Origin: Planctomycetota bacterium
GTDB taxonomy: Bacteria; Planctomycetota; Planctomycetia; Gemmatales; Gemmataceae
Direction: 5' to 3'
Assembly (NCBI GenBank): GCA_021413735.1
Contig: JAIOPV010000276.1
Span: forward strand, 5,873 to 69,872
Length of the DNA: 64,000 nt
Of the stretch, positions 35,298 through 63,205 are shown one piece after another. The notes under the pieces were generated by a model that was given only the letters and a program-made list of their open reading frames with translations, ran no database searches and was not told the origin of the DNA. The first letter of the stretch is position 1; every line of letters begins with the position of its first letter. The translations under genes were made by a program, and so were the position numbers.

Positions 35298-35365
35298 AAA
35301 TCCGCCCCAGTCAAGATTCTCCGCGGGATTTGGTGAGATTGGGCTAAATGCCGTGAGAGATCACG
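35298..35365 (+). promoter_or_regulatory. Conserved upstream element, copy A (putative promoter or structured leader)
   Basis: Shares the ordered blocks aaatccg, aagattc, gcgggattt, ttgggctaaat and agatcacg with 47347-47418. Confidence 0.55.
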
Positions 35366-35470
35366 AGCCCAGACTCGCAGCCCGTTCCGAATCCGACACC
35401 GCCAAGTAGCCCACCGCACTCTCCGCCTTGTTTCCCGCTTCCGTTTCCGCCACCCGACGTGAGACACGCT

Positions 35471-36805
35471 ATGGCCCGCTCGTCTCAGACCTGCCACTCC
35501 GCCGAACACTTCGTGGACCGCCGCGCGTTCCTGAGTGCGGGCGCCGCCTTCGTGGGCGGCGTTTCCGCACTCAACCCCCTGGCAACGCCGGCGCTCGCGA
35601 AGGACATGGCCCGCAAGCAGAAGCGGGTGCTGATGATCTTCCTGAACGGGGGCATGAGCCAGTTCGAGAGCTGGGATCCCAAACCGGGCACGGCGACCGG
35701 CGGCCCGTTCCAGTCGATCCAGTCCTCCATCCCGGGCTACCGCGTCTCGGAGTTGATGCCCAAAATGGCCGCGTGCCTCCACAAGCACACGGCCGTCATC
35801 CGCTCGCAACTCGCGTCCGGCGACCACAACGACTTCACCATCTTCGGCGGCAAGCCGCGAACCGGCCCGGTCCGCTACCCCAGCCTCGGGCCGATGCTCG
35901 CGCGGGAACTGGCCGACCCCAAGAGCCCGGTTCCTTACCATGTCATGTTCACCAACTACCTGGGGGCCAACTTCTTCGAGAACGCCGGGTTCCTCGGGAC
36001 CATCTGGGATCCGATCAACATCACCCCGGAGAGCGTACCGGCGAAGCCGCCTTTCTCGGTCGCCGGCTCGAAGCACCGCCTCGCCCCGCCCGCGAACAAG
36101 TTGCCCGACTCGCTCACCGACCAGGACCACCGCGAGCGCGAGGCGCTGCGCGCGGAGTTGGCGAAGCGGTTCGGGACCGGCCGCGAGCGGGACGGCGTGC
36201 TGCTCAGCCACGGCGGGGCGTACGGCCGTGTCCGCGGGCTGATGGAGAGTGCCAAACTGTTCGACATCGAGCAGGAGTCGAAGAGCACGCGCGACAAGTA
36301 CGGTTCGACGCCGTTCGGCGAGCAGGCGCTGGTGGCGCGGCGGCTGATCGAGGCGGGCGTCCCGTATGTCCGCGTGAACCGCGGGTGGTGGGACCACCAC
36401 GGCCAGAATTTCGAGTTCCACCAGGAGATGGTCCCCGAACTCGACCACATCCTGAGCGTACTCCTCGACGACCTGAAGGACCGCGGCCTTCTCGACGACA
36501 CGCTGGTCGTCACGTTCTCCGAGATGGGCCGTACCCCCGGCATCAACAACAACAACGGCCGGGACCACTTCGCCCGGATGAGCGTGACGCTGTCCGGCTG
36601 CGGGGTCAAGCCCGGCGTGGTCCACGGCAGCACCACGGCTGACGGCGGCAACATCGCGAAGGATCCGGTCAGCCTCCAGCAGTTCTTCGCCACCGTGATG
36701 AAGGCCGTGGGGATCGATCACCAGAAGGAAATCACCAACAGCGACGGCCGCCCGGTACCACTCACCGACTACGGCACCGAGCCGGTCGCCGCCGTCCTCG
36801 CCTGA
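35471..36805 (+). CDS. DUF1501 protein (Tat-type leader)
   Basis: DRRAFL, FLNGGMSQFESWDPKP, ALVARRLIEAGV, WWDHH, EMGRTP and GRDH. Confidence 0.92.
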   Translation: MARSSQTCHSAEHFVDRRAFLSAGAAFVGGVSALNPLATPALAKDMARKQKRVLMIFLNGGMSQFESWDPKPGTATGGPFQSIQSSIPGYRVSELMPKMAACLHKHTAVIRSQLASGDHNDFTIFGGKPRTGPVRYPSLGPMLARELADPKSPVPYHVMFTNYLGANFFENAGFLGTIWDPINITPESVPAKPPFSVAGSKHRLAPPANKLPDSLTDQDHREREALRAELAKRFGTGRERDGVLLSHGGAYGRVRGLMESAKLFDIEQESKSTRDKYGSTPFGEQALVARRLIEAGVPYVRVNRGWWDHHGQNFEFHQEMVPELDHILSVLLDDLKDRGLLDDTLVVTFSEMGRTPGINNNNGRDHFARMSVTLSGCGVKPGVVHGSTTADGGNIAKDPVSLQQFFATVMKAVGIDHQKEITNSDGRPVPLTDYGTEPVAAVLA

Positions 36806-36840
36806 CCGCCCCCGCACCCCGTTGCCGAGAAACCGTCTCC

Positions 36841-37881
36841 ATGAACGCACAACCGAAGAAGGATCCGCCGCCCGCGGCGCCGGTGGTGGACGTGAAGTTG
36901 GTACGGGAGGTCGGCGTGGGCTGCGACCTCCTGGCCGTTGCGGGTATCCCCGGTACGGCCAAGGCTTTCGCCGGGGGCACGGACGGAAAGATATACCTCA
37001 TCGATTTCGACGAGGCGAAACCAAATCCGGTGACGTGGGCCGCTCACACCGGCTACGTCAGCGGGCTGGCGCTGGCGGGCAAGTATCTCGTCTCCGGTGG
37101 GTCGGATCATCAGTTGATCTGGTGGGACGCCGAGACCCGCGAGAAGGTACGCGGCCTGGAAACGCACGACAAGAAATGGGTTCGCAGCGTGGCCGCATCC
37201 CCGGACGGCAAACTGGTCGCCAGCGCCGGCGACGACATGGTCGGCCGGCTGTGGGACGCGACATCCGGCAAACTCATTCACGAACTGAAGGGGCACGACA
37301 AGCTCACCCCGTACCAACTGGCGTCGAAGTTGTACTGCGTCCGCTTCTCGCCCGACGGCAAGCACCTCGCGACCGGCGACCAGACCGGCACCGCCGTCGT
37401 CTGGGACGCGGCCGGTGGCAAGGAGGTCGGGCGGGTCCGCGCCCCGAACCTGTACACCTCCGACACCAACGGGCACACCTACGGCGGAATCCGCGCACTG
37501 GCGTTCTCTCCAGACGGCACACGACTGGCGCTCGCGGGAAACATCGCCGGCGACACCTCCACGATCACCAACAGCAAGGCGCTGGTGCAGGCCTTCGACT
37601 GGAAGGCCGGGAAAATGACCCAGGACATCCCGGTGAAGGTCAACGCCTTCTTCGAGGCCGTCGCGTTCCACCCGAAGGAGCCGTGGCTGTTCGCCGCGAC
37701 CGGCGCCGGCGAGGGGAAGAAGGTCGTGATCCTCGACGTCGAGAAGGCGTCGGTGCTTCAAGAGATCACGTCGAACACTCCCCTCTTCGACGTGGCGCTG
37801 AACGCGGTCGGGGACACGCTCGTCGCGGTCGGCCGAAAGAAAGCGTTCTGCTGGCGACTCACCCGACGAGACCCCCAATGA
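36841..37881 (+). CDS. WD40-repeat protein
   Basis: 346 aa. HTGYVSGL..LVSGGSDH..IWWD, WVRSVAASPDGKLVASAGDD..RLWD and VRFSPDGKHLATGD. No clear signal peptide. Confidence 0.9.
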   Translation: MNAQPKKDPPPAAPVVDVKLVREVGVGCDLLAVAGIPGTAKAFAGGTDGKIYLIDFDEAKPNPVTWAAHTGYVSGLALAGKYLVSGGSDHQLIWWDAETREKVRGLETHDKKWVRSVAASPDGKLVASAGDDMVGRLWDATSGKLIHELKGHDKLTPYQLASKLYCVRFSPDGKHLATGDQTGTAVVWDAAGGKEVGRVRAPNLYTSDTNGHTYGGIRALAFSPDGTRLALAGNIAGDTSTITNSKALVQAFDWKAGKMTQDIPVKVNAFFEAVAFHPKEPWLFAATGAGEGKKVVILDVEKASVLQEITSNTPLFDVALNAVGDTLVAVGRKKAFCWRLTRRDPQ

Positions 37882-39515
37882 ACACGCCATTCCGCGCCAC
37901 GGTCTGCTTCGCACTGTTGCTCGCCGTCGGCATCGCCGTGGACACCGCGACGGGCACCGAACGTCTTCCGGCGGATCGACCCATGCCGGACGTAATCGAC
38001 CACCACGTCGATCAGCAGTTGCAGAAGGCGAAGGTCATCCCGGCCCCACAGGCCGACGACGCGACCTTGGTCCGGCGGCTCTACCTCGACCTCGCCGGTC
38101 GCATCCCGACCCCCTCCGAGGCCCGCGAGTACATCGACTCGACCGACCCGAGGAAGCGCGACAAGCTGGTCGCGGAGTTGGTCGCGTCACCCGAGTTCAT
38201 TCGCCACAACGCGAACGAGTTCGACGCCTTCCTCCGCAACGACAACGGCGACGGCGGGAGCGTCCGCCCGTACCTCCTGGCAGCTTTCAAAGAGGGACGC
38301 CCGTGGGATCGGATGTTCCGCGACCTGCTCGGGGCCAGCGAAACGCCGCACCCCACAAAGCCCGAACAGTACGTGCTGCGACGGCTCAAGGACCGCGATG
38401 CACTCACGCGAGACATCAGCAGTGTGTTCTTCGGGTTGAACATCAGTTGTGCTCAGTGCCACAATCACCCGTACCTGAAGTCGCTGACCCAGGACTACTT
38501 CTTTGGGATGCGAGAGTTCTTCGCCGCGTCCTATGATTTCCAGGGCAACCTCCTCGACCGCCGGTTCGTAAAGTCGGCCGAGTTCAAGCCGAAGTCCGGT
38601 GCCGCCCGACCGGTGAAGATGATGTTCCTGAACGGCCAGACGGTCGATCGCGCAGGCGAACCGGCCGACGACCTGGCGAAGGCCATCCAGGAGGAGACGA
38701 AGGCTATCGAGCAACTCGGCAAGGCGTATGCCAAGGATAAGGTTCTGCCGCCGCAGGCGACGTTCCGGGCCCGCGAGAAGCTGGTGGATCTGGCCCTGAC
38801 ACCGGAGAGCCGCGACCGATTCGCCCGGGCGATGGTGAACCGTCTCTGGTTCCGTTTTTACGGCGACGGGCTGGTGATGCGGGTGGACCAGATGCACGCC
38901 AACAACCCTGGGAGCCACCCGGAGTTGCTCGACTGGCTGACCCGCGACTTCATCGCTCACGACTACGATCTGAAACGGCTCATCGCGGGGCTCGTCTCGA
39001 GTAAGACCTACGCCCGCAGCAGCGAGTGGAAGGGGGTTCCGGTGCCGGCACCGGAGCTGTTCGCGGTGGCGTCGATCCGGCCACTGACCCCGGCGCAGTG
39101 GGCGGCATCGTTCCAACTCGCCAACAACCCGGCGCTGCTTGGCCGAGAGAAGACCTTCGAGGCCCGCGAGAAGGCTCTGAGCGCCCTTGAAAATGCCGCG
39201 CGGCCGCTCGAGAGCCTGATCCAGTATCCGCGGGACGACATGCCGATCCCGGTTACTGAATCGATGCGGCTGAGTAACGATCCGGGCCTCAACAAGTCGA
39301 TCGGCGCCCAGTTGCTTCCGGCACTGAAAAAGGCCAGCGACCGCAAGGCGCAGATCACCGAGGCTGTCTGGGCCGTGCTGTCGCGGCCGCCGACCGCCGC
39401 CGAGTACGAACTCTTCGAGTCGTACCTGGAGCGCCGGAAGGATCGGCCGGACGCGGCCCTCCAGCAAATGGTCTGGGCGCTCATCAACAGCCCCGAGTTC
39501 CGATTCAACCACTAG
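37878..39515 (+). CDS. DUF1549-DUF1553 protein (no N-terminal PSCyt1)
   Basis: Start MNTPFRATVC with ATGA overlap. ADDATLVRRLYLDLAGRIPT, CAQCHNHP and SHPELLDWL. Confidence 0.92.
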   Translation: MNTPFRATVCFALLLAVGIAVDTATGTERLPADRPMPDVIDHHVDQQLQKAKVIPAPQADDATLVRRLYLDLAGRIPTPSEAREYIDSTDPRKRDKLVAELVASPEFIRHNANEFDAFLRNDNGDGGSVRPYLLAAFKEGRPWDRMFRDLLGASETPHPTKPEQYVLRRLKDRDALTRDISSVFFGLNISCAQCHNHPYLKSLTQDYFFGMREFFAASYDFQGNLLDRRFVKSAEFKPKSGAARPVKMMFLNGQTVDRAGEPADDLAKAIQEETKAIEQLGKAYAKDKVLPPQATFRAREKLVDLALTPESRDRFARAMVNRLWFRFYGDGLVMRVDQMHANNPGSHPELLDWLTRDFIAHDYDLKRLIAGLVSSKTYARSSEWKGVPVPAPELFAVASIRPLTPAQWAASFQLANNPALLGREKTFEAREKALSALENAARPLESLIQYPRDDMPIPVTESMRLSNDPGLNKSIGAQLLPALKKASDRKAQITEAVWAVLSRPPTAAEYELFESYLERRKDRPDAALQQMVWALINSPEFRFNH

Positions 39516-39523
39516 AGCACGGT

Positions 39524-40885
39524 ATGACCACCACCTTCCGACCGGTGTTTTTCGGCGCGGCCCTGTGGTTCGTTGCTTGCGGGTCCACAGACGCCCACGC
39601 GGACGACTGGCCGCAGTTCCGGGGGCCGAACCGCGACGGCGTCTCTCGCGAAACCGGCTGGCTGACCGGGTGGCCGACCAACGGTCCGAAGGTGCTCTGG
39701 AAGGTGTCCGTTGGGCGCGGGTACTCGTCCGTTGCCGTGGTCAAGGACCGCCTATACACACTGGGGCTGCTGCCGAAGGATCCGGCCAAGAAGGACTCGC
39801 TCCAGGAGGTGGTTCAGTGTCTCGACGCGGAGACGGGCAAGCCGGTCTGGGAGTTCGTGAGCTCGACCGTGATCGATAAGAGTTTCCCGGGAGCGCGCTC
39901 GACGCCGACGGTTCAGGGCAAACACGTCTATGTGTTCGGGCAGGGGGCCGAACTGTACTGCCTCGAAGCCGCAAGCGGGAAGGTCGTCTGGCAGAAGCCC
40001 CTGATGAAGGAACTGGGCGCGCAGACCGTGACCTACGGGTATGCTGCGTCTCCACTCGTCGTGGACGATCTGGTTGTCGTGCCTGCCCGAATCCCGGCGG
40101 ACAAGGTACCGAAGGACAGCCAGCCCGCAGAACCGGGCCTCCTGCTCGCCTTCGACAAGGCAACCGGGAAAGAAGCGTGGCGTGTCTACCACCCGTCGGC
40201 GCAAATCGGCGGCGGATACTGGGCGGCCCCGACCGCTTGCACGATGAACAGCCAACCTTGTCTCGTGTTCTCGTCCGGCAACGCGGTACTCGGCATCGCC
40301 CCCACCACGGGGAAGGTGTTGTGGAAATACCAGTTCTCGGCCGAAGACTTGAAGACCAAGGAGGGACGCAAAGGGATCACGGCCCAGGAACCGCTCGTCG
40401 TCGGCAACCGCGTCGTGTGTTGCATTCACCCCGATAACTCAAACGGGTTGGGCGTCTGCCTCGAAGTGAACGGCGACGAGGTCAAGGAAGTGTGGCGCGA
40501 CAAACTGCTCGACAACTACACCTGCTCCTACGTCGCGTGGAAGGGCCACGTGTTCGGCATTCAACACAACGACACCGCGAGCCGGATCGGACCGTTGTAC
40601 TGCTTCGACGTGCAAACGGGGAAGAAGAAGTGGGAGATGCCCGATGCCGGTGGCGCCTTCACGCTGGTCGACGGGAAGTTCCTCACCTTCAACGGAGTCG
40701 AGGTCTTGTTGATCGAAGCCGCGACCGACGAACCCAAGGAACTGGCCCGCAGTCAGAAGCTGTTCACGAAGGAGGAAATGACGTTCCGCTACAGCGACCG
40801 CATCGCGCCGGTACTGGCCAACGGCCGGATTTACTGCCGGAACCAGAACGGCTTCATCGTGTGCCTGGACGTCGGCGGGAAATGA
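39524..40885 (+). CDS. Secreted PQQ-like beta-propeller protein
   Basis: 453 aa. DDWPQFRGPNRDG, GRGYSSVAV, GARSTPTV and APVLANGRIYCRN. Confidence 0.92.
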   Translation: MTTTFRPVFFGAALWFVACGSTDAHADDWPQFRGPNRDGVSRETGWLTGWPTNGPKVLWKVSVGRGYSSVAVVKDRLYTLGLLPKDPAKKDSLQEVVQCLDAETGKPVWEFVSSTVIDKSFPGARSTPTVQGKHVYVFGQGAELYCLEAASGKVVWQKPLMKELGAQTVTYGYAASPLVVDDLVVVPARIPADKVPKDSQPAEPGLLLAFDKATGKEAWRVYHPSAQIGGGYWAAPTACTMNSQPCLVFSSGNAVLGIAPTTGKVLWKYQFSAEDLKTKEGRKGITAQEPLVVGNRVVCCIHPDNSNGLGVCLEVNGDEVKEVWRDKLLDNYTCSYVAWKGHVFGIQHNDTASRIGPLYCFDVQTGKKKWEMPDAGGAFTLVDGKFLTFNGVEVLLIEAATDEPKELARSQKLFTKEEMTFRYSDRIAPVLANGRIYCRNQNGFIVCLDVGGK

Positions 40886-41014
40886 CGACTCGGCGAGATG
40901 CTTCAACTCGAGGCCACCAACGGCCGTCAACCTGGGTGAACGCATTCCTGGGGCGGGCCTCCCGGCCACGATCCCACAGTTACAATCGTCCTGCCGCCTC
41001 TCCAGGAGTTCCCG

Positions 41015-42010
41015 ATGTTCCGCGCGGTCCTCGTCCTCGTCTCGCTCTCACCCGTGCTGGCCGGGGAACCCCCGAAGGCTGACCTCCGTTGGCAGAAGGC
41101 GACCGCCTCCCCGTTCGCACGAGTCGAGTCCCCGACTGCCGTCATCGACGGCAAGATGTACCTGTTCGGCGGCTTTACCGACGACCTGGGGGCGTCGAAC
41201 CGGGTGGATGTGTACGACCCGGCAGCCGACGCTTGGGCCCGCAAAAAGGACATGCCTGCGGGTCTCACCCACCTCAACCCGGCTGTCGATGGGAAGACCG
41301 TCTGGTTCGCGGGCGGGTTCAAGGGGAAGCACCCCGGCCCGGCGACCGTCGAGGTGTGGAAGTACGATCTCGCCTCCGACTCCTGGGCCGCTGGGTCGCC
41401 ACTGCCGGAGCGGCGGACGGGGGGCGGATTGGTCGTGTTCCGTCGCCGGTTGCACTACTTCGGGGGCTACAAGGAGGATCGCGACACGAACGCCGGCGAC
41501 CACTGGAGCTTGTCGCTCGACGGGGGTAAGGAGTGGGAAAAAGAGGCGGCACTCCCCGACCCGCGTGGTCATCTGACGGCGGTGGTGCTGGACGGCATGA
41601 TCTATGCACTGGGCGGGGCTCATGGGCACGACAAAACGCAAATCGACGTGGCGTCCTGTCACCGCTACGACCCCGAGAAGAAGAAGTGGGCCGAGATCGC
41701 CAGCCTCCCCGACGGCCGGAGCCACTTCGAGTCCAGCACGGTCGTTCTGAACGGCCGGATTCTCGTTGTTGGCGGTCGGTGCAACAGTTCGAAGCCGCCC
41801 CGGAATGTCGTGGGCGACCTGCTGGAGTACGACCCCAAGGCGGATGCGTGGCTCGTCGTCGGTGGACTACCCGAAAAGGTGATGTCCCCGTCCGCGGCGG
41901 TCATCGGTGCGAAACTCGTGGTCATTGGTGGCGGCCTGAACAACCCGCGACCGCTCACAGCGGCTACGTGGGTGGCGGAGTTCCCGGGCAGGTCGACCGA
42001 GAAGCCGTAA
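41015..42010 (+). CDS. Kelch-repeat protein (NanM/galactose oxidase-like propeller), secreted
   Basis: Repeats DGKMYLFGG, HYFGG, DGMIYALGG, NGRILVVGG and YDP..D.W. AGGAG RBS and TACAAT at 40981-86. Confidence 0.9.
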   Translation: MFRAVLVLVSLSPVLAGEPPKADLRWQKATASPFARVESPTAVIDGKMYLFGGFTDDLGASNRVDVYDPAADAWARKKDMPAGLTHLNPAVDGKTVWFAGGFKGKHPGPATVEVWKYDLASDSWAAGSPLPERRTGGGLVVFRRRLHYFGGYKEDRDTNAGDHWSLSLDGGKEWEKEAALPDPRGHLTAVVLDGMIYALGGAHGHDKTQIDVASCHRYDPEKKKWAEIASLPDGRSHFESSTVVLNGRILVVGGRCNSSKPPRNVVGDLLEYDPKADAWLVVGGLPEKVMSPSAAVIGAKLVVIGGGLNNPRPLTAATWVAEFPGRSTEKP

Positions 42011-42031
42011 GGCGGTGTAAGGGGACGGACG

Positions 42032-42112
42032 ATGCTGACCTTTCGCCACAACGGCATCGACCGCTGACTGACGGACGTCTACGGTACCGTCATCCGCGAA
42101 ATCCTGAACTGA
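42032..42112 (+). pseudogene. Headless DUF1501 3' tail with an in-frame stop
   Basis: MLTFRHNGIDR*LTDVYGTVIREILN* matches the familiar DUF1501 C-terminus LT(F/Y)RHxGxDxRLTDVxGxVIxEIL. TGA (42065-67) sits where R is expected. Confidence 0.8.
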
Positions 42113-42170
42113 CAGCGTGCGTTCACGATCCCGAACCGCAACATTGGGATTCGATTGACAAGGAGACGAG

Positions 42171-42809
42171 ATGAACCGCTATTGCGTCACCGTGCTACTC
42201 ACGATCGGTTTCCTCGGTTTCAGCTTTGGGGCGGACGAGCCCAAGCCCGACAAGGACGGCTGGTACGATCTGTTCGACGGCAAGAGCCTCGATGACTGGA
42301 AAGCCGCCGAAGACCCGAAAGCCTTCAAGGTGGAAGATGGACTCATTGTGGCGGGTCCGTCGAAGCTGACCCACCTGTACTACAACGGGCCGATTCAGAA
42401 GGGGAACTTCAAGAACTTTGAACTGAAGGCCGAGGTGAAGACGCGCCCGAAGGGCAACTCCGGCATCTTCTTTCACACGGAATATCAGGCAAAAGGGATC
42501 CCGGGCAAGGGGTTTGAGTTTCAGATCAACAACACTGGGAGCGACCAGAAGTACCGGACAGGTGCCATCTACCCGACCAAGCCGCTGGACAAGGTTCTCG
42601 TCAAGGACGACGAGTGGTTCGAGTGCCACCTCTCGGTCCGCGGGAACAAGGTCGTGTTGAAGGTGAACGGCGAGATCACGCACGACGTGGAGTTGCCCGT
42701 TAACGCGAAGAGCGGCCTATCCCTTTCGAGCGGCACTTTCGCGATCCAGAGCCACGACCCGGGGAGCGTCGTCTACTTCCGCCGCATCCGAGTCAAGCCG
42801 CTGGAATGA
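42171..42809 (+). CDS. DUF1080 (3-keto-disaccharide hydrolase family) protein, secreted
   Basis: DGWYDLFDGKSLDDW, FKNFELKAEV, GNSGIFFH, GFEFQI and GTFAIQSHDPGSVVYFRRIRVK. Confidence 0.92.
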   Translation: MNRYCVTVLLTIGFLGFSFGADEPKPDKDGWYDLFDGKSLDDWKAAEDPKAFKVEDGLIVAGPSKLTHLYYNGPIQKGNFKNFELKAEVKTRPKGNSGIFFHTEYQAKGIPGKGFEFQINNTGSDQKYRTGAIYPTKPLDKVLVKDDEWFECHLSVRGNKVVLKVNGEITHDVELPVNAKSGLSLSSGTFAIQSHDPGSVVYFRRIRVKPLE

Positions 42810-43050
42810 CTCCGATGCTCCACGCCGAGCCACCCGCCTCGCATTCTGTGGCTCCCACCCCAGGACGAGATTCGACATGATCACGCCCGGTTCCGCCCCT
42901 GTCCGCAGAACCTTCTTGTGCGCCGCAGCAGCCCTCAACGGCGCTGTCCGGTGACGAGGTTGGAAATCTCCGGTCGCTGTCTGCTCCCGCGGACGTCGGG
43001 GTACTTTCTCGTGTCGCCCTCCTGCTACTTCCTCTTACCCGCCCGGTCAC

Positions 43051-43917
43051 ATGTCACGCCGTTCCCTTGTTTCCTGCGTCCTGGTGGCCCTCCTGGCCCG
43101 CACCGCTGCGGCCGACGAGGCCAAATCCGACGGCCACGCCTTCGTCGGCGTCACGTTCCAAAAGAACAAGGTGGTCGCCGTCTCGGCGAAGGGCGACGTG
43201 GAGTGGGAATACGACGCCCCCGCGTGCCTCGATGCCTGGAAGCTCCCGAACGGCAACGTTCTCGTCGCCAGCCGGTCGAAGGGAATTCTGGAGGTCACGC
43301 CGGAGAAGAAGGTGGTTTGGTCGTTCAAGCCGGACGGGGAGACGTACACCTGCCAGCGGCTGTCGAACGGGAACACCCTTGTGGGCGATAACAAGAACGC
43401 CCGGCTCATCGAGGTGGACGCGGCGGGTAAGATCGTCCGCGAGGTGAAATTGGCGACGAAGGCCAAGGAACACGGCATGATCCGCACGGCCCGCGCCGTC
43501 GGATCCGACCGTTATCTGGTGTGCCAGCGGGAGGACAACGTCGTCCGCGAGTACGACGCCGACGGCAAGGTAGTGTGGGAGCACAAGGTGAACGGCCCGA
43601 TGTCGGCCGTGCGGTTGCCCAACAAGAACACCCTCATCGCCGGCTACTTCGGCGGGGTGGTAGAGGTCGATCCGACCGGCAAGGAGGTCTGGAAGGTCAC
43701 CATGAAGGACTTGCCGGCGGGTGCGAAGGGACAGCCGTACGGGGTGCAACGATTGCCCAATGGCAACACCGTCTTCGTCGCCGACGGCACGGTGTACGAG
43801 GTCACGCCGGAGAAGAAGATCGTGTGGTCGCGGTCCGGCCCGGCCCTCGCGGGGTTATTTGGTGTGCAGATCACCGACGTTCCCGGCGACGCGACCAAGG
43901 GAGAAGTGCTGCGATGA
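43051..43917 (+). CDS. Secreted beta-propeller repeat protein (PQQ/NHL-like)
   Basis: Repeats LPNGNVLVA..ILEVTPEKKVVW, LSNGNTLV..LIEVD, LPNKNTLI..VVEVD and LPNGNTVF. Confidence 0.85.
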   Translation: MSRRSLVSCVLVALLARTAAADEAKSDGHAFVGVTFQKNKVVAVSAKGDVEWEYDAPACLDAWKLPNGNVLVASRSKGILEVTPEKKVVWSFKPDGETYTCQRLSNGNTLVGDNKNARLIEVDAAGKIVREVKLATKAKEHGMIRTARAVGSDRYLVCQREDNVVREYDADGKVVWEHKVNGPMSAVRLPNKNTLIAGYFGGVVEVDPTGKEVWKVTMKDLPAGAKGQPYGVQRLPNGNTVFVADGTVYEVTPEKKIVWSRSGPALAGLFGVQITDVPGDATKGEVLR

Positions 43918-45806
43918 CCCGACCGCAACTGCTGACCGGTATCGTCGCGTACGTCCTGCTGTCCGCCCCGGCCGTGGCCGCGGAGCCGTCCTTCGAGAAG
44001 GACGTGTTGCCCATTCTCAGAGCGCACTGCGTCTCGTGCCACGGAGGCGACAAGCCGAAGGCCGGGCTGGACCTCTCCACCGAGAAGGGCGTCACGGCCG
44101 GGGGGAAGAGCGGCGCGGTGGTGAAACCCGGCTCGCTGAAGGAAAGCCCCCTCTGGCTCAACGTCTCGACCGACAAGATGCCCGCGACCGGGCCGAAACT
44201 GACGGACGAGGAAAAGGCCGTGCTGCGGACGTGGGTCGCGGGCGCGAAGACCGGGACGGTTCAGCCCGTCAAGCCGGGCCAGAAGCGCGGCGTTACCGCC
44301 GCCGCGAAGGCCGTCGACGACGCCATCGAAGCCCGGCTCGCGAAGGACGGGTTGAAGCCCGCGGAGCAGGCCGACGATTCCGAGTTCCTCCGACGCGTTT
44401 ACCTCGACCTTACCGGGGTCGTGCCGACCGCGGAGAAGGCGGTCGCGTTCCTCGATGACACCTCGCCCGACAGGCGAGCCAGGCTCATCGATGAACTCCT
44501 CGCGTCGCCGGAACACGGGCGATTCGCTGGCGAGCAGTGGGCCGCGCTGCTCTCGGCAGAAGAACCCGAACTGCGGCCGAAACTGGCGGCGTGGCTGGCC
44601 GACCAGTTCAACCGCGGTCGCGGGTGGAACGCGGTCGTGAGCGATCTGATCGCGGCCGACGGGACCGGCCCGGAAACGAACTTCGTGATGGCCCACGCCG
44701 AGAACAAGCAGCCGGTGCCGGAGAAACTGGCCGGGGCCACGGCTCGGCTGTTCCTGGGCCTGCAACTCCAGTGCGCGGAGTGCCATAACCACCCGTTCAC
44801 CGAGTGGAAGCAGACCGACTTCTGGGCGCTGGCCGCGTTCTACAGCCGCGCCCGGATGGCGACCAAGCCGCCGGCGGGCCTCTCGGACTCCGAAACTCCG
44901 GTGATCAAGTTGCCGCCGCCGAAGAAGGGCGAACCGGCCGTCGATCTGAGCGGGGCGGTGATCCCGATCGGGGCGAACGCCGGCCGGGCCGCGGGGAAGC
45001 CCGTGCGGGCCAAGTTCCTCGGCGGTCCGGAGCCGGGGCTCGACCCCAAGGGCCCGTTCCGGCCCGCCCTCGCCGCGTGGATCACCGCCGCCGACAACCC
45101 GTACTTCGCCGACGCCACCGTAAACCGCGTCTGGGCCGAACTGTTCGGCCGCGGGCTGGTCAACCCGGTGGACGACCTCTCCCCGGAGAACCCCGCGAGC
45201 CACCCGGAGGTGCTCCGCGCCCTGGCCGATGAGTTCCGCGCGTCCGGGTTCGACCGCAAGCACCTGATCCGCTGCATCTGCAACAGCAAGACCTACCAGC
45301 GGACCAGTCGCGGGACCGACACCGCGGGCGAGAAGGTGTACGCCCGCGTGCCGGTGAAGGTGATGGCCCCCGGCGCGCTGTACGACTCGCTCGTCCGCAC
45401 CACTGGGGTGAAGGAGGTTCGGCTCGACGTGTACCTCCCCTCCGGCGGTCGCGGCGGGGTGACGGCCAAGCGGCCCGCGCGCGAGGTGTTCGTCCGGTTC
45501 TTCGGCACCCGCGATCCGGATGCACCCGGCACCGAGTACACCCACGGCATCCCGCAGGCGCTCGGGCTGCTCAACGGCCCGACGTTCACCCGCCCCACGC
45601 CCGTGGTCGAGCAACTCGTCAAGGACAAGGTGATGCCGGAAAAGGCGGTCGAGCGGCTCTACTTGGCCGCGCTCGCGCGCCGCCCGACGGCCGACGAAAC
45701 GAAGCTGATGACCGCCTACCTGGCGAAACGCACCGACCCGGCCATCGGGTACGCGGGCGTGCTGTGGATCCTGCTGAACTCCCCCGAATTCGTTCTCATT
45801 CGCTAG
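43914..45806 (+). CDS. PSCyt1-DUF1549-DUF1553 cytochrome c protein
   Basis: Start MTRPQLL with ATGA overlap. CVSCH, ADDSEFLRRVYLDLTG, CAECHNHP and NRVWAELFGRGLVNPVD. Confidence 0.93.
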   Translation: MTRPQLLTGIVAYVLLSAPAVAAEPSFEKDVLPILRAHCVSCHGGDKPKAGLDLSTEKGVTAGGKSGAVVKPGSLKESPLWLNVSTDKMPATGPKLTDEEKAVLRTWVAGAKTGTVQPVKPGQKRGVTAAAKAVDDAIEARLAKDGLKPAEQADDSEFLRRVYLDLTGVVPTAEKAVAFLDDTSPDRRARLIDELLASPEHGRFAGEQWAALLSAEEPELRPKLAAWLADQFNRGRGWNAVVSDLIAADGTGPETNFVMAHAENKQPVPEKLAGATARLFLGLQLQCAECHNHPFTEWKQTDFWALAAFYSRARMATKPPAGLSDSETPVIKLPPPKKGEPAVDLSGAVIPIGANAGRAAGKPVRAKFLGGPEPGLDPKGPFRPALAAWITAADNPYFADATVNRVWAELFGRGLVNPVDDLSPENPASHPEVLRALADEFRASGFDRKHLIRCICNSKTYQRTSRGTDTAGEKVYARVPVKVMAPGALYDSLVRTTGVKEVRLDVYLPSGGRGGVTAKRPAREVFVRFFGTRDPDAPGTEYTHGIPQALGLLNGPTFTRPTPVVEQLVKDKVMPEKAVERLYLAALARRPTADETKLMTAYLAKRTDPAIGYAGVLWILLNSPEFVLIR

Positions 45807-45820
45807 CCGAGGGCCGAGCC

Positions 45821-47125
45821 GTGTCCCAACTCACTCGCCGCGAGCTGTTCTGCCTGTCCGCCGCCGGGGTCGGGGGCGCGTCCGCCTCCGGGTGGCTCGG
45901 CGCCCTCGCCGCACACGCCGCCAAGCCCCTCGCGGGCAAGAAGGCGAAGCAGTGCATCCTCCTCTGGATGGACGGGGGGCCCTCCCACCACGACACGTTC
46001 GACATGAAGCCGGACGCCCCGGCCGATGTCCGCGGCGAGTTTACGCCGATTCAGTCGTCCGTCACCGGTCTTCAGGTGACGGAGATGCTCCCTCGGGTGG
46101 CGAAGGTGATGCACCTCGCGGCGGTAATTCGCGGGATGAGCACCGGGGAGTCGGAGCACGGCCGCGCGCGGACGTACCTCCACACCGGCTACCGGGTCGG
46201 GGCGGGCGGGCTCCAGTATCCGACGATGGGCTCGCTGATGACCGCCGCGGCAGGCGAACCGGCCGACGCCGCGATGCCGAACTTCGTCGTCACCGGGACG
46301 CACCTGAACCCGGCGAACTGGTCGTATGTCGCCAGCCCCGGGCACCTCGGCCCGCGGCACACCCCGCTCATCGTCGCCGACCCGGCCGGTGGGGTGGCGA
46401 ACCTCAAGCCGGGGGTGGACGACGCCGAGTTCGACGACCGCGCCGCAGTGCTCGACCAGATGACCCGCGGCTTCCTCCGCGACCGCCCGGCACCGCCAGC
46501 GGCTGCCCAGGCGACCGCCTACCAGCGGGCCGTGCAGCTCATGCGGTCGCCGAAGGGTAAGGCGTTCGACCTGTCGGCCGAGCCGCTGAAGGTGCGAGCG
46601 ACCTACGGCGACCACGCGTTCGGCAAGGGGTGTCTGCTGGCCCGGCGGCTGGTCGAAGTCGGGGTGCCGTTCGTCGAGGTGTACCACGCCCCGACCCCCG
46701 GCGGGTGGGACAACCACACCGGCGCGCGGGCGAAGGAGGTTAAGACCCTCGCCCTGCCGCAACTCGACCAGGGGATGAGCGCCCTGCTCGCCGACCTGAA
46801 GGACCGCGGCCTGCTGGACAACACGCTGGTGGTATGGATGGGCGAGTTTGGCCGCACCCCGAAAGTGAAGCCCGACGGCGGGCGCGACCACTACGCCCGG
46901 GCGTGGACGACGCTCCTTGCGGGCGGCGGTGTCCAGGGCGGCGCGATCGTCGGGCGGACCGACAAGACCGGGGCAACGGTCGAGGACCGCCCGGTGTCCG
47001 CTGCCGACTTCATGGCGACGGTCTGCCAGGCTCTCGGCGTTGACCCGGAGACCGAGTTCCAGGTGGGGGAGCGCCCAGTCCGGGCTGTGGACAAGGGATC
47101 CAAGCCGCTCACCGAACTGTTCTGA
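45821..47125 (+). CDS. DUF1501 protein (Tat-type leader)
   Basis: GTG start VSQLTRRELF. WMDGGPSHHDTFDMKP, WDNH, GEFGRTP and GRDHY. Close paralog of 27591-28889. Confidence 0.92.
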   Translation: MSQLTRRELFCLSAAGVGGASASGWLGALAAHAAKPLAGKKAKQCILLWMDGGPSHHDTFDMKPDAPADVRGEFTPIQSSVTGLQVTEMLPRVAKVMHLAAVIRGMSTGESEHGRARTYLHTGYRVGAGGLQYPTMGSLMTAAAGEPADAAMPNFVVTGTHLNPANWSYVASPGHLGPRHTPLIVADPAGGVANLKPGVDDAEFDDRAAVLDQMTRGFLRDRPAPPAAAQATAYQRAVQLMRSPKGKAFDLSAEPLKVRATYGDHAFGKGCLLARRLVEVGVPFVEVYHAPTPGGWDNHTGARAKEVKTLALPQLDQGMSALLADLKDRGLLDNTLVVWMGEFGRTPKVKPDGGRDHYARAWTTLLAGGGVQGGAIVGRTDKTGATVEDRPVSAADFMATVCQALGVDPETEFQVGERPVRAVDKGSKPLTELF

Positions 47126-47154
47126 CCCCCGAGCCCGACCACCAGAATCGCCTC

Positions 47155-47316
47155 ATCTTGTGTCAGGAACACAGGCTCGGCAAGGACGGGGAGTGGGACA
47201 ACTGGCGGGTGGAAGGCCCAGCGTTCGTGTGGTACTTCCGCGGCTTCCCGCACGTTCACATCTGGTTCCACGCCGCCGAGAACCCGGACGTCCCCGGCAC
47301 GTCCCACTTCGGATGA
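47155..47316 (+). pseudogene. Headless 3' tail of a DUF3500-type gene
   Basis: ...LGKDGEWDNWRVEGPAFVWYFRGFPHVHIWFH...* matches the WDxWRxEGPxFVWxFRGxPHVH C-terminal signature of planctomycete DUF3500 proteins, as recalled. No start codon and no upstream domain. Confidence 0.7.
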
Positions 47317-47346
47317 CGCCCTCGCTCGCCTCACCCGTTCCGCCGG

Positions 47347-47418
47347 AAATCCGAACCCCCGGAAAGATTCGCTGCGGGATTTAGTGGGGTTGGGCTAAAT
47401 ACTGAGGAGGAGATCACG
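47347..47418 (+). promoter_or_regulatory. Conserved upstream element, copy B
   Basis: Homologous to 35298-35365; lies 85 bp upstream of the ECF sigma start. Confidence 0.55.
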
Positions 47419-47502
47419 GGACGGGCTTACAACCCGGCCGAATTCTGCTCTACGTATCGGGCGGAAGTTGTTTCCGTGCAGTGGCTTGTGGGATGGTCGG
47501 AC

Positions 47503-48018
47503 ATGGGCGTTTCCACTGAATTCGTGACGCAGATCACCCGCTCTCAGCGGCAGTTGCACTCGTTCATTCTGTCGATGGTGTGGAATCCGGCCGAGGCGGA
47601 CGACGTGCTCCAGGAGACGAATCTGGTGCTCTGGGAGAAAGTGTCCGAGTTCGATGCTGGCCGGCCATTTCTGCCGTGGGCGATGCAGTTCGCCCAGTTC
47701 CAGGCGTTGGCGTGGCTCAAGCGGCGCCGGCGGCAACGGCTTGTATTCGACGACGATCTGGCCCGACTGCTCGCGGACGATGCCATTCAGGAAGAGTTGA
47801 CGTTTGAAGACCGGCGAGAGGCCCTCGCGACGTGCCTGCAGAAACTCCCAGCCGAACAGCGTGACCTGATTGCCCGGCGCTACGAACCGGAGGGGTCGGT
47901 GAACGCCATTGCCACGGCCGGCGGGACGTCGCCTAAGGCGGTCTCGGATCGGCTGCGGCGGATCCGCCACACGTTGCTCCAGTGCATCCAGCGGACGCTC
48001 AGGGAGGCCATCGCGTGA
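47503..48018 (+). CDS. ECF sigma-70 factor (Rhodopirellula/Verrucomicrobium type, TIGR02989-like)
   Basis: ADDVLQETNLVLWEK..FD...FLPWA (region 2) and LATCLQKLP..QR.LI..RY...S...AV...L.RIR..L..CI (region 4). Confidence 0.92.
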   Translation: MGVSTEFVTQITRSQRQLHSFILSMVWNPAEADDVLQETNLVLWEKVSEFDAGRPFLPWAMQFAQFQALAWLKRRRRQRLVFDDDLARLLADDAIQEELTFEDRREALATCLQKLPAEQRDLIARRYEPEGSVNAIATAGGTSPKAVSDRLRRIRHTLLQCIQRTLREAIA

Positions 48019-49589
48019 CGACCAATTACGATCTCGAAGGGCTGTTCAATCGACTCGCTGACGGCCTCGCGTCGGAGGCCGACGAACGCACCCTGACCGA
48101 GTTGCTCCGCAGTAGCCCCGAAGTGCGGCGTGCGTATCGCGAGTTCATGGCGTTGCACTCGGGGTTGCACTGGGACTACGTCGCCGCCGCCGGGCCCGAA
48201 GTTCCTCAGCCCCCAACCGTGCCGGCCCCGCCCACTGGTTCCTCATGGCGGGCCGGTTGGTTCGCTGCGTTCGGCGCAGGGATGCTGTTGGCCAGTGCTG
48301 CGGCCTTGGCCCTGTTCCTCCTGCGACCCGTTCCACCGGGCCCGCCTGAACAGACCGCCTCGCCGCCGAAGCCTGATGTTCCGAAGGAGGGCTCGATCTC
48401 GGCCCTGTTGGTGGACGGGGTGGGAGCGGAGTTCGCTCTGGGTCGCGCGCCCGACGGAGTCCGATTTGGCCCCGGTGAGTACGAACTGGTCAAGGGCATC
48501 GTCCACCTTCGGTTCGCGCAGGGGGCCGACATGGTGCTGGTCGCCCCGGCTCGCATCGAAGTCACTGACGCGCAGCGTACCCGGCTGGTGCAAGGCCAGG
48601 TGCGGGTGATCGCGCCCCCGACCGCGAAGGGGTTCACGGTCGCCACGAAGGCCGCCAACTACATTGATCTGGGAACCGAGTTCGGCTTGCGGGTCGATCC
48701 CGCCAGCGGGGCCAGCGACCTGTACGTGTTCGACGGGCAGGTGGATGTCACCGACTCGCGGTCGGGCGCGGTGCGGTCGGTCATGGGCGGCAAGTCGTCG
48801 CGGTCGGTGGACGGTCGGCCGACCGACGCCCCGCCGCTGAAGGAGGGGGACTTCCCAACACCCGGTTCCATCGGCCTGAAACGCTGGGAGCAGTATGAAC
48901 TGGAGATACGAAAGGACCGCACCCTGTTGGCGTTCTTCCCGTTCCGACGCCAGGCCGACGAGTCCGTGTTGGTGAACGCGATCGAGGGCGGCGGGATGGG
49001 CGACGGTCGAGTTGTCGGCGCGCGGTGGACGACCGGCCGGTGGCCCGGTAAGGACGCTCTGCTCTTCGACCGCGACACCGACTTCGCGCAGGTGACGATC
49101 CCCGGTGAGCACCAGGAACTGACACTCGCGGCATGGGTGAAGGTCGAACGCATCGACTTCGTGCTCAACGCGATCCTGAACTCCGACGGGTACGAACCGG
49201 GCGGCATCCACTTCCAGTTGAATCGCCAGGGGTTCGTCCGCGGCGGCGTGATCCTAGCGGGGAACTTCAAGGACCCGTTCGTGGGGAAACCGGTTCCGCT
49301 CGGGAGCTGGGTCCACGTCGCCTCGGCGATCTCCGCTCGGACACGCTCTCAGCAGATCTATGTGAACGGGGTGCTGGCCCGCGAGCGGAACTGGCAGAAC
49401 GAAACGCTGGTGCGGCCCGGTTCGTGTCGGATTGGCAACTGGCTGGCCATTCCGAAAGACCAGTTCCCGACCCGTGCGTTACGTGGTCAGATGGACGAAC
49501 TCGCGGTCTGGAGCCGGGCTCTGCCGAAGGAAGAAATCGGGCGGTTGGTCGAGACCGGACGCCCCGGATTACTGTGGAACAAGGAATAA
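48015..49589 (+). CDS. FecR-domain anti-sigma factor with a C-terminal LamG-like jellyroll
   Basis: GTG start overlaps the sigma TGA. N-terminal anti-sigma helix, TM segment AGMLLASAAALALFLL, FecR motif IDLGTEFGLRV..LYVFDGQV, then LTLAAWVK, WVHVA, IYVNG, IGNW and GQMDELAVWSRAL. Confidence 0.9.
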   Translation: MTTNYDLEGLFNRLADGLASEADERTLTELLRSSPEVRRAYREFMALHSGLHWDYVAAAGPEVPQPPTVPAPPTGSSWRAGWFAAFGAGMLLASAAALALFLLRPVPPGPPEQTASPPKPDVPKEGSISALLVDGVGAEFALGRAPDGVRFGPGEYELVKGIVHLRFAQGADMVLVAPARIEVTDAQRTRLVQGQVRVIAPPTAKGFTVATKAANYIDLGTEFGLRVDPASGASDLYVFDGQVDVTDSRSGAVRSVMGGKSSRSVDGRPTDAPPLKEGDFPTPGSIGLKRWEQYELEIRKDRTLLAFFPFRRQADESVLVNAIEGGGMGDGRVVGARWTTGRWPGKDALLFDRDTDFAQVTIPGEHQELTLAAWVKVERIDFVLNAILNSDGYEPGGIHFQLNRQGFVRGGVILAGNFKDPFVGKPVPLGSWVHVASAISARTRSQQIYVNGVLARERNWQNETLVRPGSCRIGNWLAIPKDQFPTRALRGQMDELAVWSRALPKEEIGRLVETGRPGLLWNKE

Positions 49590-49656: not shown

Positions 49657-51039
49657 ATGAATGTTCACCCCTGTGCGGGGCCGGTGTCACGGCGGTCGTT
49701 CCTCACCATGGGCACGCTGGGCATCACGGGGCTGAGCCTCGCTGATGTGATGCAACTGCGGGCCGCCCAGGGGAGGTCGAGCCTCGCCCCGGACACGTCG
49801 GTCATCTTCGTGTGGCTGGCTGGCGGGCCGCCGCACCTCGACATGTACGACATGAAGCCGGACTCGCCCGAGGAATACCGCGGGCCGTTCAAACCGATCC
49901 CGACGAACGTCCGGGGTCTCGATGTGTGCGAGCACATGCCGCTGCACGCCAAGTGCGCGGACAAGTACACCGTGATCCGCAGTATCGCGCACACGTTCAA
50001 CGACCACGGCGGTGGGTCCAAGCGGGTGATGACGGGGCGCATTCCGAACACGCCGACGGAGACCGTGAACGACTCCCCTGCGGTCTGCACGATCGTCTCC
50101 AAGATGCGGGAGAAACTCCAACTCGGCCTGCCCAACTGTGTCTCGGTGGTCGATGGTGGCCGGGCCGGAGTGGACACGTACGCGCAGGGGGCGGCGTGGC
50201 TCGGCCACGGGTACACGCCGTTCATGGTGGACGGCGACCCGAGCAAACCGAATTTCCAGGTGAAGAACATCGGTGTCAGCGAGGAGATGGCACTGCGGCT
50301 CGACGACCGGTTCACGCTCCTCCGGGGCATCGAGGGGGTGCGCCGCGAGGCGGACACGAACCCCGCGCTGAAGACGATGGGCGGGCAGTACGCTCGCGCC
50401 TTCGACATGCTGACCAGCACACAGGCCCGGGCTGCGTTCGACCTGTCGAAGGAGCCGGTCGCGCTGCGCGAGCGGTACGGGATGAACGCGTGGGGCCAAC
50501 GGGCGCTGCTGGCCCGGCGACTGGTCGAAGCCGGGTGCAGCTTCGTGACGGTGGTGATGGAGAACCCGCACATCAACGGGTGCTTCTACAACTGGGACAC
50601 GCACGCGGTCAACCACGACAACTTCATCGACATGAAGCTGCGTCTGCCGGTGTACGACAAGGTCATCACGGCGCTCGTCGAGGATCTGCACGCGCGGGGT
50701 CTGAACAAGAAGGTGCTGCTGGTGGTGACGGGCGAGTTCGGACGGTCGCCGAGGATTAGCAAGGCCGACGGTGGGGCCAAGGGGATGCGTAACGGGCGTG
50801 AGCACTGGCCGCAGTCGATGTCGGTGTTGGTCTCCGGTGGCGGTATGAAAATGGGACAGGTGATCGGCTCGACCGACAAGCTGGGCACACACCCGCATGA
50901 GAACCGCCTGACGCCGGAAGATCTGTGGGCGACCGTCTACAAGCACCTGGATATCGAACCGCACAGTTTCCTCTACGACCCACAACAACGACCGGTTCCG
51001 ATCCTGCCGTCCGGCCAATCGATCCGCGAGCTGCTGTAA
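49657..51039 (+). CDS. DUF1501 protein
   Basis: SRRSFL, WLAGGPPHLDMYDMKP, LLARRLVEAG, WDTH, GEFGRSP and GREHWP. Confidence 0.93.
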   Translation: MNVHPCAGPVSRRSFLTMGTLGITGLSLADVMQLRAAQGRSSLAPDTSVIFVWLAGGPPHLDMYDMKPDSPEEYRGPFKPIPTNVRGLDVCEHMPLHAKCADKYTVIRSIAHTFNDHGGGSKRVMTGRIPNTPTETVNDSPAVCTIVSKMREKLQLGLPNCVSVVDGGRAGVDTYAQGAAWLGHGYTPFMVDGDPSKPNFQVKNIGVSEEMALRLDDRFTLLRGIEGVRREADTNPALKTMGGQYARAFDMLTSTQARAAFDLSKEPVALRERYGMNAWGQRALLARRLVEAGCSFVTVVMENPHINGCFYNWDTHAVNHDNFIDMKLRLPVYDKVITALVEDLHARGLNKKVLLVVTGEFGRSPRISKADGGAKGMRNGREHWPQSMSVLVSGGGMKMGQVIGSTDKLGTHPHENRLTPEDLWATVYKHLDIEPHSFLYDPQQRPVPILPSGQSIRELL

Positions 51040-51168
51040 TCTCCCGCCGACACCCGCGAGACCGACGAAAGCCGGTCCCTCGGGCCCGCCTCGAAACCGT
51101 TCGTCGTCATTCCCCGCGAGAGCCTCGTTAGGAATTCACGCCCCAAACTTCAGATCGGCTGGAACACC

Positions 51169-52515
51169 ATGACTCAAATCGAAGCTGCCAAAGCCGGCCT
51201 CCACCGGCGTGAACTTCTGCGGATGGGTGCCGCGTCGTTTTGCGGCCTGGCCCTGACCGATTTCTTGCGGGCCGACGCGCGCTCCGCGCTCGACTCCGCA
51301 TACCGCAAGAAGTCGATTGTCAACGTCTGGTTGGCCGGCGGCGCATCGCACCTGGACACGTTCGACATGAAGCCGGACGCCCCGGCGGAGTTCCGCGGGG
51401 AATTCAAGCCGATCGCGACGCGGGTGCCGGGGCTGCAGATCTGCGAGCACATGCCCAGGATCGCCGAGCGGATGGACCGCATGGTCCTGATCCGCTCGCT
51501 CACGGGCACAGTCGACTCGCACGACGGGGCGATGTGCGCGACCGGCTACCCGCCGGGCAACCTGAAGAACATCGGCGGGCGACCGAACATTGGGTCGGTC
51601 GTCGCCAAACTCCAAGGCCCCACCAATGGCAACGTACCCACGTCGGTCGCCATGATCTCCGGGTACAACCCCAGTGAGCAGGCTTACTTTCGCTCGGCGG
51701 GATACCTGGGCTCGACCTACGACTGTTACACCCCGGACAGCGAGGGGGCGCGAGCCAACCTGACCGCGCGGAACGTGACGCCAGACCGCCTGCGGCTCCT
51801 GTCGGGCTTCGACACGGGCAGCAGGGAGCGCGATACCCGTGGAACCATGGAGGCGATGGATGTCTACACCCAGCGGGCGATCGAGTTCTTGACCTCGCGG
51901 GAGTTCGCGCGGGCGCTCGACATCAACGCTGAGCCGCTGAAGGTGCGGGATCGGTACGGCATCGGGTTCGGGAAGAGTCCCAAATCCAAAAGAACACTGG
52001 GCCTGCAAAACGCTCGGTTCCTCATGGCGCGGCGGCTGATCGAGTGCGGCGCGCGCTGCGTGAACGTGACCTGGGAAGAGGAGGGCGAACGGCGGTGGGA
52101 CACCCACAGTGACAACTTCAACGCCCTGCGTCATGAATTATTGCCGTCCTTCGACCTCGGCCTCAGTGCCTTTTTCGACGACCTCGAGGCGCGGGGCCTG
52201 ATGGACGACGTCCTCGTGCTCGTCTGGGGCGAATTCGGTCGAACACCGCGGATCAACGACAAAGCGGGCCGCGACCACTACGCCCCGGCGGCATCTGCGC
52301 TGTTGTTCGGAGGCGGTCTCAAAGTGGGCCAAGTGATTGGAAGCACGACGAAGAACGGTGAACGGCCCAAGGATCGCCCGATCCACTACCAACAGATGTT
52401 CGCCACGCTGTACCGGCACCTCGGGATCGACCCGGCGACCACCACAATCATGGACCCGAACAACCGTCCGCAATACCTCCTCGAGGAGGCGGACCCGATC
52501 CGCGAACTGCTGTGA
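51169..52515 (+). CDS. DUF1501 protein
   Basis: HRRELL, WLAGGASHLDTFDMKP, LMARRLIECG, WDTH, GEFGRTP and GRDHY. Confidence 0.93.
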   Translation: MTQIEAAKAGLHRRELLRMGAASFCGLALTDFLRADARSALDSAYRKKSIVNVWLAGGASHLDTFDMKPDAPAEFRGEFKPIATRVPGLQICEHMPRIAERMDRMVLIRSLTGTVDSHDGAMCATGYPPGNLKNIGGRPNIGSVVAKLQGPTNGNVPTSVAMISGYNPSEQAYFRSAGYLGSTYDCYTPDSEGARANLTARNVTPDRLRLLSGFDTGSRERDTRGTMEAMDVYTQRAIEFLTSREFARALDINAEPLKVRDRYGIGFGKSPKSKRTLGLQNARFLMARRLIECGARCVNVTWEEEGERRWDTHSDNFNALRHELLPSFDLGLSAFFDDLEARGLMDDVLVLVWGEFGRTPRINDKAGRDHYAPAASALLFGGGLKVGQVIGSTTKNGERPKDRPIHYQQMFATLYRHLGIDPATTTIMDPNNRPQYLLEEADPIRELL

Positions 52516-52635
52516 GCGCCGCCCTGAGGCGTGGGGTCGCTCCTGCTCCCATCCATTTCCCACAGGCAAGGCGTCCGGAACTGCTGAACACGGACCTTTT
52601 GCCGGGCGCAATGACGTGCAACTCGGAGGTACACC

Positions 52636-57704: not shown

Positions 57705-57741
57705 CCCACGTTGGTACGTTTCCTTCTGTCAGGAACAGTTC

Positions 57742-63187: not shown

Positions 63188-63205
63188 TCAAGCCAGGGGA
63201 AGCAG

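Follow-up and report, generated by a model that had tools for sequence, protein, structure and literature searches.

Sigma factors of the extracytoplasmic function (ECF) type are typically co-transcribed with an anti-sigma factor and subject to positive autoregulation, and prediction of their promoters routinely builds on this (PMC8103513, PMC7826278). Promoters obtained by this autoregulation-based approach differ by group and subgroup (PMC7826278, PMC8103513), and the canonical ones bear AAC in the -35 element and CGT in the -10 element, a hallmark that is no longer defining in later ECF classifications (PMC8103513). Here we consider a 64,000-nucleotide (nt) stretch, hereafter the window, from a Planctomycetota bacterium of the family Gemmataceae (assembly GCA_021413735.1, contig JAIOPV010000276.1), in which an ECF sigma factor of the TIGR02989 type and its anti-sigma factor are encoded among genes for PSCyt/PSD cytochrome-like and DUF1501 proteins (Table 1). 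Three copies of a two-part motif, sites A, B, and C, lie in this gene cluster, with site B in front of the sigma gene. We propose that they are probably the cognate promoter by which the sigma factor positively autoregulates its own operon and controls a local regulon. No description of the motif was found in the literature searched, which did not cover the ECF Hub group pages, and an earlier computational prediction is therefore possible.

An earlier sequence-only reading of the window had paired 35298-35365 with 47347-47418 as a shared leader, to be explained either as a promoter read by the TIGR02989 sigma factor or as a cis-regulatory RNA. The resemblance is borne out by pairwise alignment, in which the two stretches are alignable over about 88 nt, interrupted by one 2-nt indel and one of 2-3 nt. 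A 27-nt core within them, GCGGGATTTRGTGRGRTTGGGCTAAAT, is present at two places in the window and nowhere else in it (35323-35349 and 47374-47400); no match to it arose in 100 dinucleotide shuffles, and pattern search, blastn, and nhmmer recovered no third close copy in the genome (9.8 Mb in 293 contigs). The flanks outside the core (GAAATCCG...CCCC upstream and GAGATCACG...CAnCCCG downstream) are found only in same-genus relatives and at one site in G150, which belongs to another Gemmataceae genus, and the remaining secondary sites match the core only (model positions about 5-56). For this likeness of the flanks, recent duplication of the promoter region is a better explanation than function. 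In G208 (L051), a site orthologous to A precedes an identical DUF1501 start. The third copy, site C (61415-61442), had been missed by the sequence-only reading and was found with a profile built from relatives. It has the form tttttCGCACGGGAT-N11-CGGCTAA, is more divergent than A and B, and lies 110 nt before a PSCyt2/PSD1 gene, with DUF1501 next. Hence, the co-directional cluster that runs from 35.4 kb to the end of the window contains three copies of the motif, about 12-14 kb apart.

Relatives of these sites were collected with a degenerate pattern and then with a sequence-only covariance model (R1), run on 252 Gemmataceae genomes (mostly freshwater metagenome-assembled genomes, MAGs), followed by a later model, R2. 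With R1, orthologous sigma genes proved to have full-length matches upstream, and about 30 other matches were shorter and confined to the core. Several first-pass pattern matches (L003-L005, L012, L013, L015-L017, L041, and L043) were excluded as chance or coding-sequence matches; L041 and L043 resemble FHA-domain coding sequence. The logo of the 37 unique sites shows the consensus CGCGGGATT, then 8-9 freely varying bases, then T(C/G)GGCTAA(AT), with both blocks near-invariant (positions -1 to +8 and +17 to +24) and positions +9 to +16 variable. An A/T-rich tract (AAAwTT) lies 5-10 nt upstream of the first block, and, 7 nt past CTAA, 95% of the sites have a purine, after which comes a G-rich patch. 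The spacing GGGAT-N11-CGGCTAA is fixed, the sole exception being one site with a spacer shorter by 1 nt. About 17 positions of the motif are near-invariant, and its span of 28 bp is approximately the distance from -35 to -7 in a promoter of the sigma-70 family.

In sigma-54 promoters, the GG at -24 and the GC at -12 are 12 nt apart; the conserved GGG and GGC of the motif are separated by 17 nt, and a sigma-54 promoter was accordingly ruled out by eye. Likewise, a reading of GGCTAAAT as a TAAAT -35 box of the PvdS/FecI-like kind was rejected, since the logo shows no conservation about 16 nt downstream, where the -10 element would fall. Further, no sigma-70-type promoter was predicted in the three intergenic regions, a result that we count in favor of an ECF promoter.

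One line of evidence for the proposed reader of the motif comes from its strict linkage to one sigma orthogroup. A search with the sigma protein across the 252 genomes gave a bimodal result, in which 16 genomes hold 18 copies at 72-100% identity and all else is at 55% or below. The motif is present 50-140 nt upstream of all 18 orthologs, including that of G236, which was missed by the model and in which CGCGGGAT-N11-TGGCTAA was read by eye. Each of the 16 genomes with an ortholog has between one and nine copies of the motif, and among the 236 genomes that lack one, only G034 has convincing sites. In G034 we found five good sites (C206, C234, C115, C178, and C264) and no sigma ortholog above 41% identity; given that this is a 290-contig MAG, the sigma gene may simply be unassembled, the alternative being that the motif has another reader there. 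In the GTDB species collection, orthologs of 67-87% identity are also found in Pirellulaceae, Planctomycetaceae, Planctomicrobium, and one MAG of the Opitutales (Verrucomicrobiota), and the motif lies 50-140 nt upstream of 24/24 orthologs from that collection. All 27 orthologs examined carry it (18 from Gemmataceae plus 9 from Pirellulaceae, Planctomycetaceae, other Planctomycetota MAGs, and one Opitutales MAG), and it occurs only with sigma orthologs of at least 67% identity. The Opitutales locus has a local G+C content of 34%, yet GCGGGAT-N11-TGGCTAA is kept. That locus (L087; CAYSOI010000007.1) and those of three Pirellulaceae MAGs (L088, L089, and L093) combine sigma orthologs of 67-74% identity with the same motif. 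Such motif-bearing orthologs outside Gemmataceae suggest horizontal transfer among freshwater bacteria or, alternatively, binning error.

A second, decisive line of evidence is offered by two paralogous TIGR02989 groups, the upstream regions of which we aligned. The group at 51-55% identity has CGTGGGAT-N11-TGGCTAT about 50 nt before the start codon, and that at 42-44% identity has GTCCAAT-N11-CGGCTCT (CGGCTCTGAT) about 25 nt before the ATG, GGAG lying in the interval. The same layout is thus filled with other letters, indicating that the specificity of the motif changes with the sigma factor; moreover, a motif about 25 nt before the ATG with GGAG in between leaves room for a promoter only. 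The 42-44% group includes the second TIGR02989 sigma factor of the window's own genome, which is encoded outside the window (G000 contig C6, ~30330-30410) and has the variant GTCCAAT-N11-ACGCTCT, again about 25 nt before its ATG.

The copies of the motif that do not precede a sigma gene, about 24 in number, are all intergenic or at the upstream edge of an open reading frame (ORF), and all are oriented toward the next gene. Downstream of them are genes for PSCyt1/2-PSD1, DUF1501, DUF1552, and PSD3/4/5 proteins and for proteins with FGE-sulfatase domains, as well as a PQQ_2 propeller and then a PSCyt protein, a 138-aa FHA protein with a 281-aa protein and DUF1501 after it, and two 487-aa proteins without Pfam matches. 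Several of these sites are 12-30 kb away from the sigma gene, and on the longer contigs (G164, G078, G150, and G211) the sites are separated by 20-31 kb, a spacing that fits a local regulon on an accessory island. At some sites elsewhere (L035, L062, and L064) there are remnants of the first codons of the sigma gene. L035 (G150:C332) has tandem copies of the motif at 511-560 and 736-812, 225 nt apart, after each of which come leader sequence and remnants of the sigma start-codon region; the second continues into a PSCyt1/PSD3/PSD5/PSD4 gene. It seems that promoter, leader, and first codons have here been copied in front of other genes.

Of the two explanations offered by the sequence-only reading, the promoter is strongly supported by the presence of the motif at all 27 orthologs, by its positions before neighboring operons, and by the change of its letters in the paralogs, and the RNA is not. 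Under the promoter hypothesis, the membrane-bound FecR/LamG anti-sigma factor would release the sigma factor, and RNA polymerase loaded with it would recognize CGCGGGATT-N8/9-T(C/G)GGCTAA, situated 3' of an A/T-rich UP-like tract. Transcription would then start about 7 nt downstream of the motif, where 95% of the sites have the purine; the predicted starts are ~35353-35358 for site A and ~47404-47410 for site B. Site B, 103 nt before the sigma ATG, would provide positive autoregulation of the sigma/anti-sigma operon, and sites A and C would switch on the neighboring operons of PSCyt/PSD cytochrome-like and DUF1501 proteins. We infer the binding of the motif by the sigma factor, the start sites, the operon extents, and the signal sensed by the anti-sigma factor. 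As a type of regulation, an autoregulated ECF promoter with a local regulon is ordinary; its consensus here is non-canonical.

Several points weigh against this proposal. FecR-associated (FecI-like) ECF sigma factors are the classical exception to autoregulation. The consensus of the motif has neither of the ECF hallmarks, AAC at -35 and CGT at -10, and it is uncertain which of its bases would make the -35 and -10 contacts, because no more than 8-11 nt separate the two most conserved blocks. Part of the co-occurrence of motif and sigma factor is trivial, because one copy is physically linked to the sigma gene. Finally, another block in the sigma leader, with an AAC-like -35 and a 17-nt spacer, looks closer to a canonical ECF promoter.

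This proximal block, GnAA(C/G)-N17-TT(A/G)CG, lies at a fixed place 20-45 nt before the sigma ATG in most leaders of the orthogroup (47460-47502 in the window) and recurs at equivalent positions in L025-L039, L083, L086, L088, L092, and L093. It is the basis of the alternative that survives best, although we regard it as unlikely: the block (GnAAs-N17-TTrCG) would be the sigma factor's own promoter, and the motif would be DNA read by another factor, as an operator or as the promoter of a different sigma factor. Such a reading is favored by the canonical look of the block and its conservation across families, by the lack of AAC and CGT in the motif, and by the weak inverted repeat ATTTnG...CnAAAT that the motif contains. 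Against it, the motif is asymmetric and in every case oriented toward the gene downstream, and the sigma gene, alone among DNA-binding genes, always accompanies it, even into Opitutales. Neither site A nor any other target leader examined has the block itself, and it is lacking also from the Opitutales (L087) and L091 loci, both of which keep the motif, and from the paralog groups, in which motif-like elements stand directly before the start codons; site C has a GGAAC-N17 string near the ATG without a TTrCG-like element. As it is missing from targets, from L087 and L091, and from the paralogs, we treat the proximal block as a separate, unexplained feature of the leader.

We consider it very improbable that the motif is instead a cis-regulatory RNA in the 5' leader, in which the alternative stems aaatcc/ggattt and atttRg/ctaaat act as a switch. 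Both stems can be drawn in A and B just as the sequence-only reading had described, the upstream A/T tract could be a weak -10 element that places the motif at the 5' end of the RNA, and a further hairpin (Table 1) is present in four of the five sigma leaders from the window's own genus. In a set of 35 sequences, the second stem (ATTTRG/CTAAAT) is paired in 68.6% of cells, as against 68.9% in shuffles, and has not one compensatory pair; it was thus ruled out as an RNA structure, and the A/G difference that had been said to preserve its pairing (A-U versus G-U), while present in A and B, is a single instance. The first (AAATCC/GGATTT) was ruled out as a general feature, since a complement of at least 6 nt exists in only 10/38 sites, mainly of same-genus relatives, at a variable distance and with no conservation of position. 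Ten sigma leaders show no conserved fold (RNAalifold energy, -1.69 kcal/mol; covariation term positive), the leader segment from -75 to -28 has a mean fold z-score of -0.28 over 19 leaders, and the window has 0 matches to Rfam 15 at gathering thresholds. Letters that stay invariant around a variable spacer of fixed length are, rather, the signature of protein-DNA recognition. The further hairpin overlaps the proximal block in four of five own-genus sigma leaders and has no counterpart at site A; with fold z-scores of -1.1 to -2.4 in those four leaders and -0.46 in L036, it is no general feature, and it may serve as an attenuator or stability element.

We find it scarcely credible that the motif is without function of its own, whether left over from segmental duplication or marking a junction at which PSCyt/DUF1501 modules of the island recombined. 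Duplication did happen, as the genus-restricted flanks of A and B (with the one G150 site) attest, and remnants of the sigma gene start are present at some sites. The core, however, is near-invariant across families and in the 34%-G+C Opitutales context with spacer and flanks free to vary. Of the many modules in the window just 3 have it, in each case 100-150 nt ahead of a start codon and not at a module's 3' end, and no integrase is associated with it.

TABLE 1 Predicted promoters, genes, and other features of the window
Feature	Coordinates	Strand	Basis or composition
A/B likeness, full extent	35298..35384 (A); partner 47347-47436 (B)	+ (A)	Pairwise alignments
Site A, predicted promoter	35313..35349	+	Sequence, exact pattern match, R1/R2 model matches
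Site A, parts			A/T tract AAGATTC 35313-35319; upstream block CGCGGGATTT 35322-35331; variable spacer; downstream block TTGGGCTAAAT 35339-35349
Presumed site A operon	35471..47125	+	ORFs, Pfam
DUF1501 gene	35471-36805	+	Pfam
PSCyt2/PSD1 (DUF1549/DUF1553) gene, 897 aa	36822-39515	+	Pfam
Site B, predicted promoter	47364..47400	+	Pattern and R1/R2 matches; orthologous sites upstream of all sigma orthologs
Site B, parts			A/T tract AAGATTC; upstream block TGCGGGATTT 47373-47382; downstream block TTGGGCTAAAT 47390-47400
Imperfect hairpin, then GTTGTTTCC	47430..47473	+	Flagged as terminator-like by terminator scan
ECF sigma factor, TIGR02989 type, 171 aa	47503..48018	+	NCBIfam 162.8 bits (cutoff 124.55); Pfam Sigma70_r2, r4
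Anti-sigma factor, FecR and C-terminal LamG-like (Laminin_G_3)	47982..49589	+	Pfam
Genes downstream of sigma/anti-sigma	49657..61395	+	ORFs, Pfam
Site C, predicted promoter	61410..61442	+	nhmmer E=0.0026; R2 E=8.4e-6; sequence
Site C, parts			TTTTT tract; CGC-ACGGGAT 61415-61424; 11-nt spacer; CGGCTAA 61436-61442
Genes downstream of site C	61553..64000	+	PSCyt2/PSD1 61553-63187; DUF1501 from 63206, running off the window

The genes called in the sequence-only reading (ECF sigma factor, DUF1501, and DUF1549-type protein) are confirmed by NCBIfam and Pfam, apart from a WD40 label given to the N-terminal part of the 897-aa protein, for which there is no Pfam match at E<=0.001. The anti-sigma gene, the start of which overlaps the end of the sigma gene, encodes a FecR domain (PF04773, 27.8 bits; cutoff, 24) and a Laminin_G_3 domain (63.9 bits). 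Downstream of site A, a series of co-directional genes, which we take to form its presumed operon, encodes in order DUF1501, the 897-aa PSCyt2/PSD1 protein, a PQQ_2 propeller, a Kelch protein, a 3-keto-disaccharide hydrolase, a PSCyt1/2/PSD1 protein, and DUF1501. The genes that follow the sigma/anti-sigma pair are likewise co-directional (two DUF1501, a 1231-aa PSD4/PSCyt3/PSD2 protein, DUF1552, and a 1181-aa protein with an FGE-sulfatase domain) and may be co-transcribed from site B. No match to a TonB-dependent receptor family was found in the 17 proteins scanned between 33.9 and 64 kb, a scan that left out smaller ORFs. Between the DUF1501 gene and site B there is also a 52-aa ORF (47158-47316, ending in ...WYFRGFPHVHIWFHAAENPDVPGTSHFG*), the 3' end of which is kept upstream of the orthologous sites in G199, G211, and G217; it is either a real small gene or a stranded gene tail.

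Planctomycete genomes have dozens of PSCyt/PSD and DUF1501/DUF1552 gene pairs of uncharacterized function. A defined promoter with a dedicated sigma/anti-sigma pair, apparently switching on a subset of these modules, offers an experimental handle on them and on the search for the ligand of the LamG sensor domain. Further, the trio of motifs GCGGGAT/GGCTAA, GTGGGAT/GGCTAT, and GTCCAAT/GGCTCT possibly represents orthogonal sigma-promoter pairs that would be useful for deciphering the ECF recognition code. As a broader and more tentative suggestion, to which we give slightly less than even chances, the TIGR02989 family may use an undescribed ECF layout (a 7-nt box ending in AT, exactly 11 nt, and (C/T)GGCT, without AAC or CGT), the orthogroup may define the first regulon to tie a LamG-sensing FecR anti-sigma factor to PSCyt/PSD-DUF1501/DUF1552 modules, and transfer of the entire unit appears to have occurred among families of Planctomycetota and into Verrucomicrobiota.

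Parallels are suggested by three kinds of known systems. Like riboswitch-like leader RNAs, the element is a conserved noncoding stretch upstream of functionally related genes; unlike them, it has no covarying structure and no Rfam match, and its conservation is at the level of letters, in two blocks around a free spacer. Another parallel is with FecI/FecR signaling and the FecR-like anti-sigma factors of Bacteroidetes polysaccharide utilization loci, in which, as here, the anti-sigma factor combines FecR (PF04773) with a periplasmic sensor part (LamG-like in the present case) and neighboring genes, for envelope or periplasmic proteins, appear to be under the control of the sigma factor. The cluster differs in that no TonB-dependent transducer was seen in it; in addition, FecI-like sigma factors classically lack autoregulation, but the sigma gene here has the motif in front of it, and the sigma factor scores as TIGR02989. 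The FecI-like clade corresponds to ECF239-243 (PMC7826278). A further parallel is provided by the positively autoregulated promoters of ECF (group 4) sigma factors, such as rpoE P6 of Escherichia coli sigma-E and that of Bacillus subtilis sigma-W (for their features, see PMC8103513; for the prediction approach, PMC7826278). The present motif departs from these in lacking AAC and CGT, in having CGCGGGATT and T(C/G)GGCTAA only 8-9 variable bases apart, in its unusually high information content, and in a long leader of about 100-120 nt. It shares with them a two-part organization of fixed spacing upstream of a sigma/anti-sigma operon, the recurrence of the same motif before a small nearby regulon, and a difference in motif between paralogous sigma groups.

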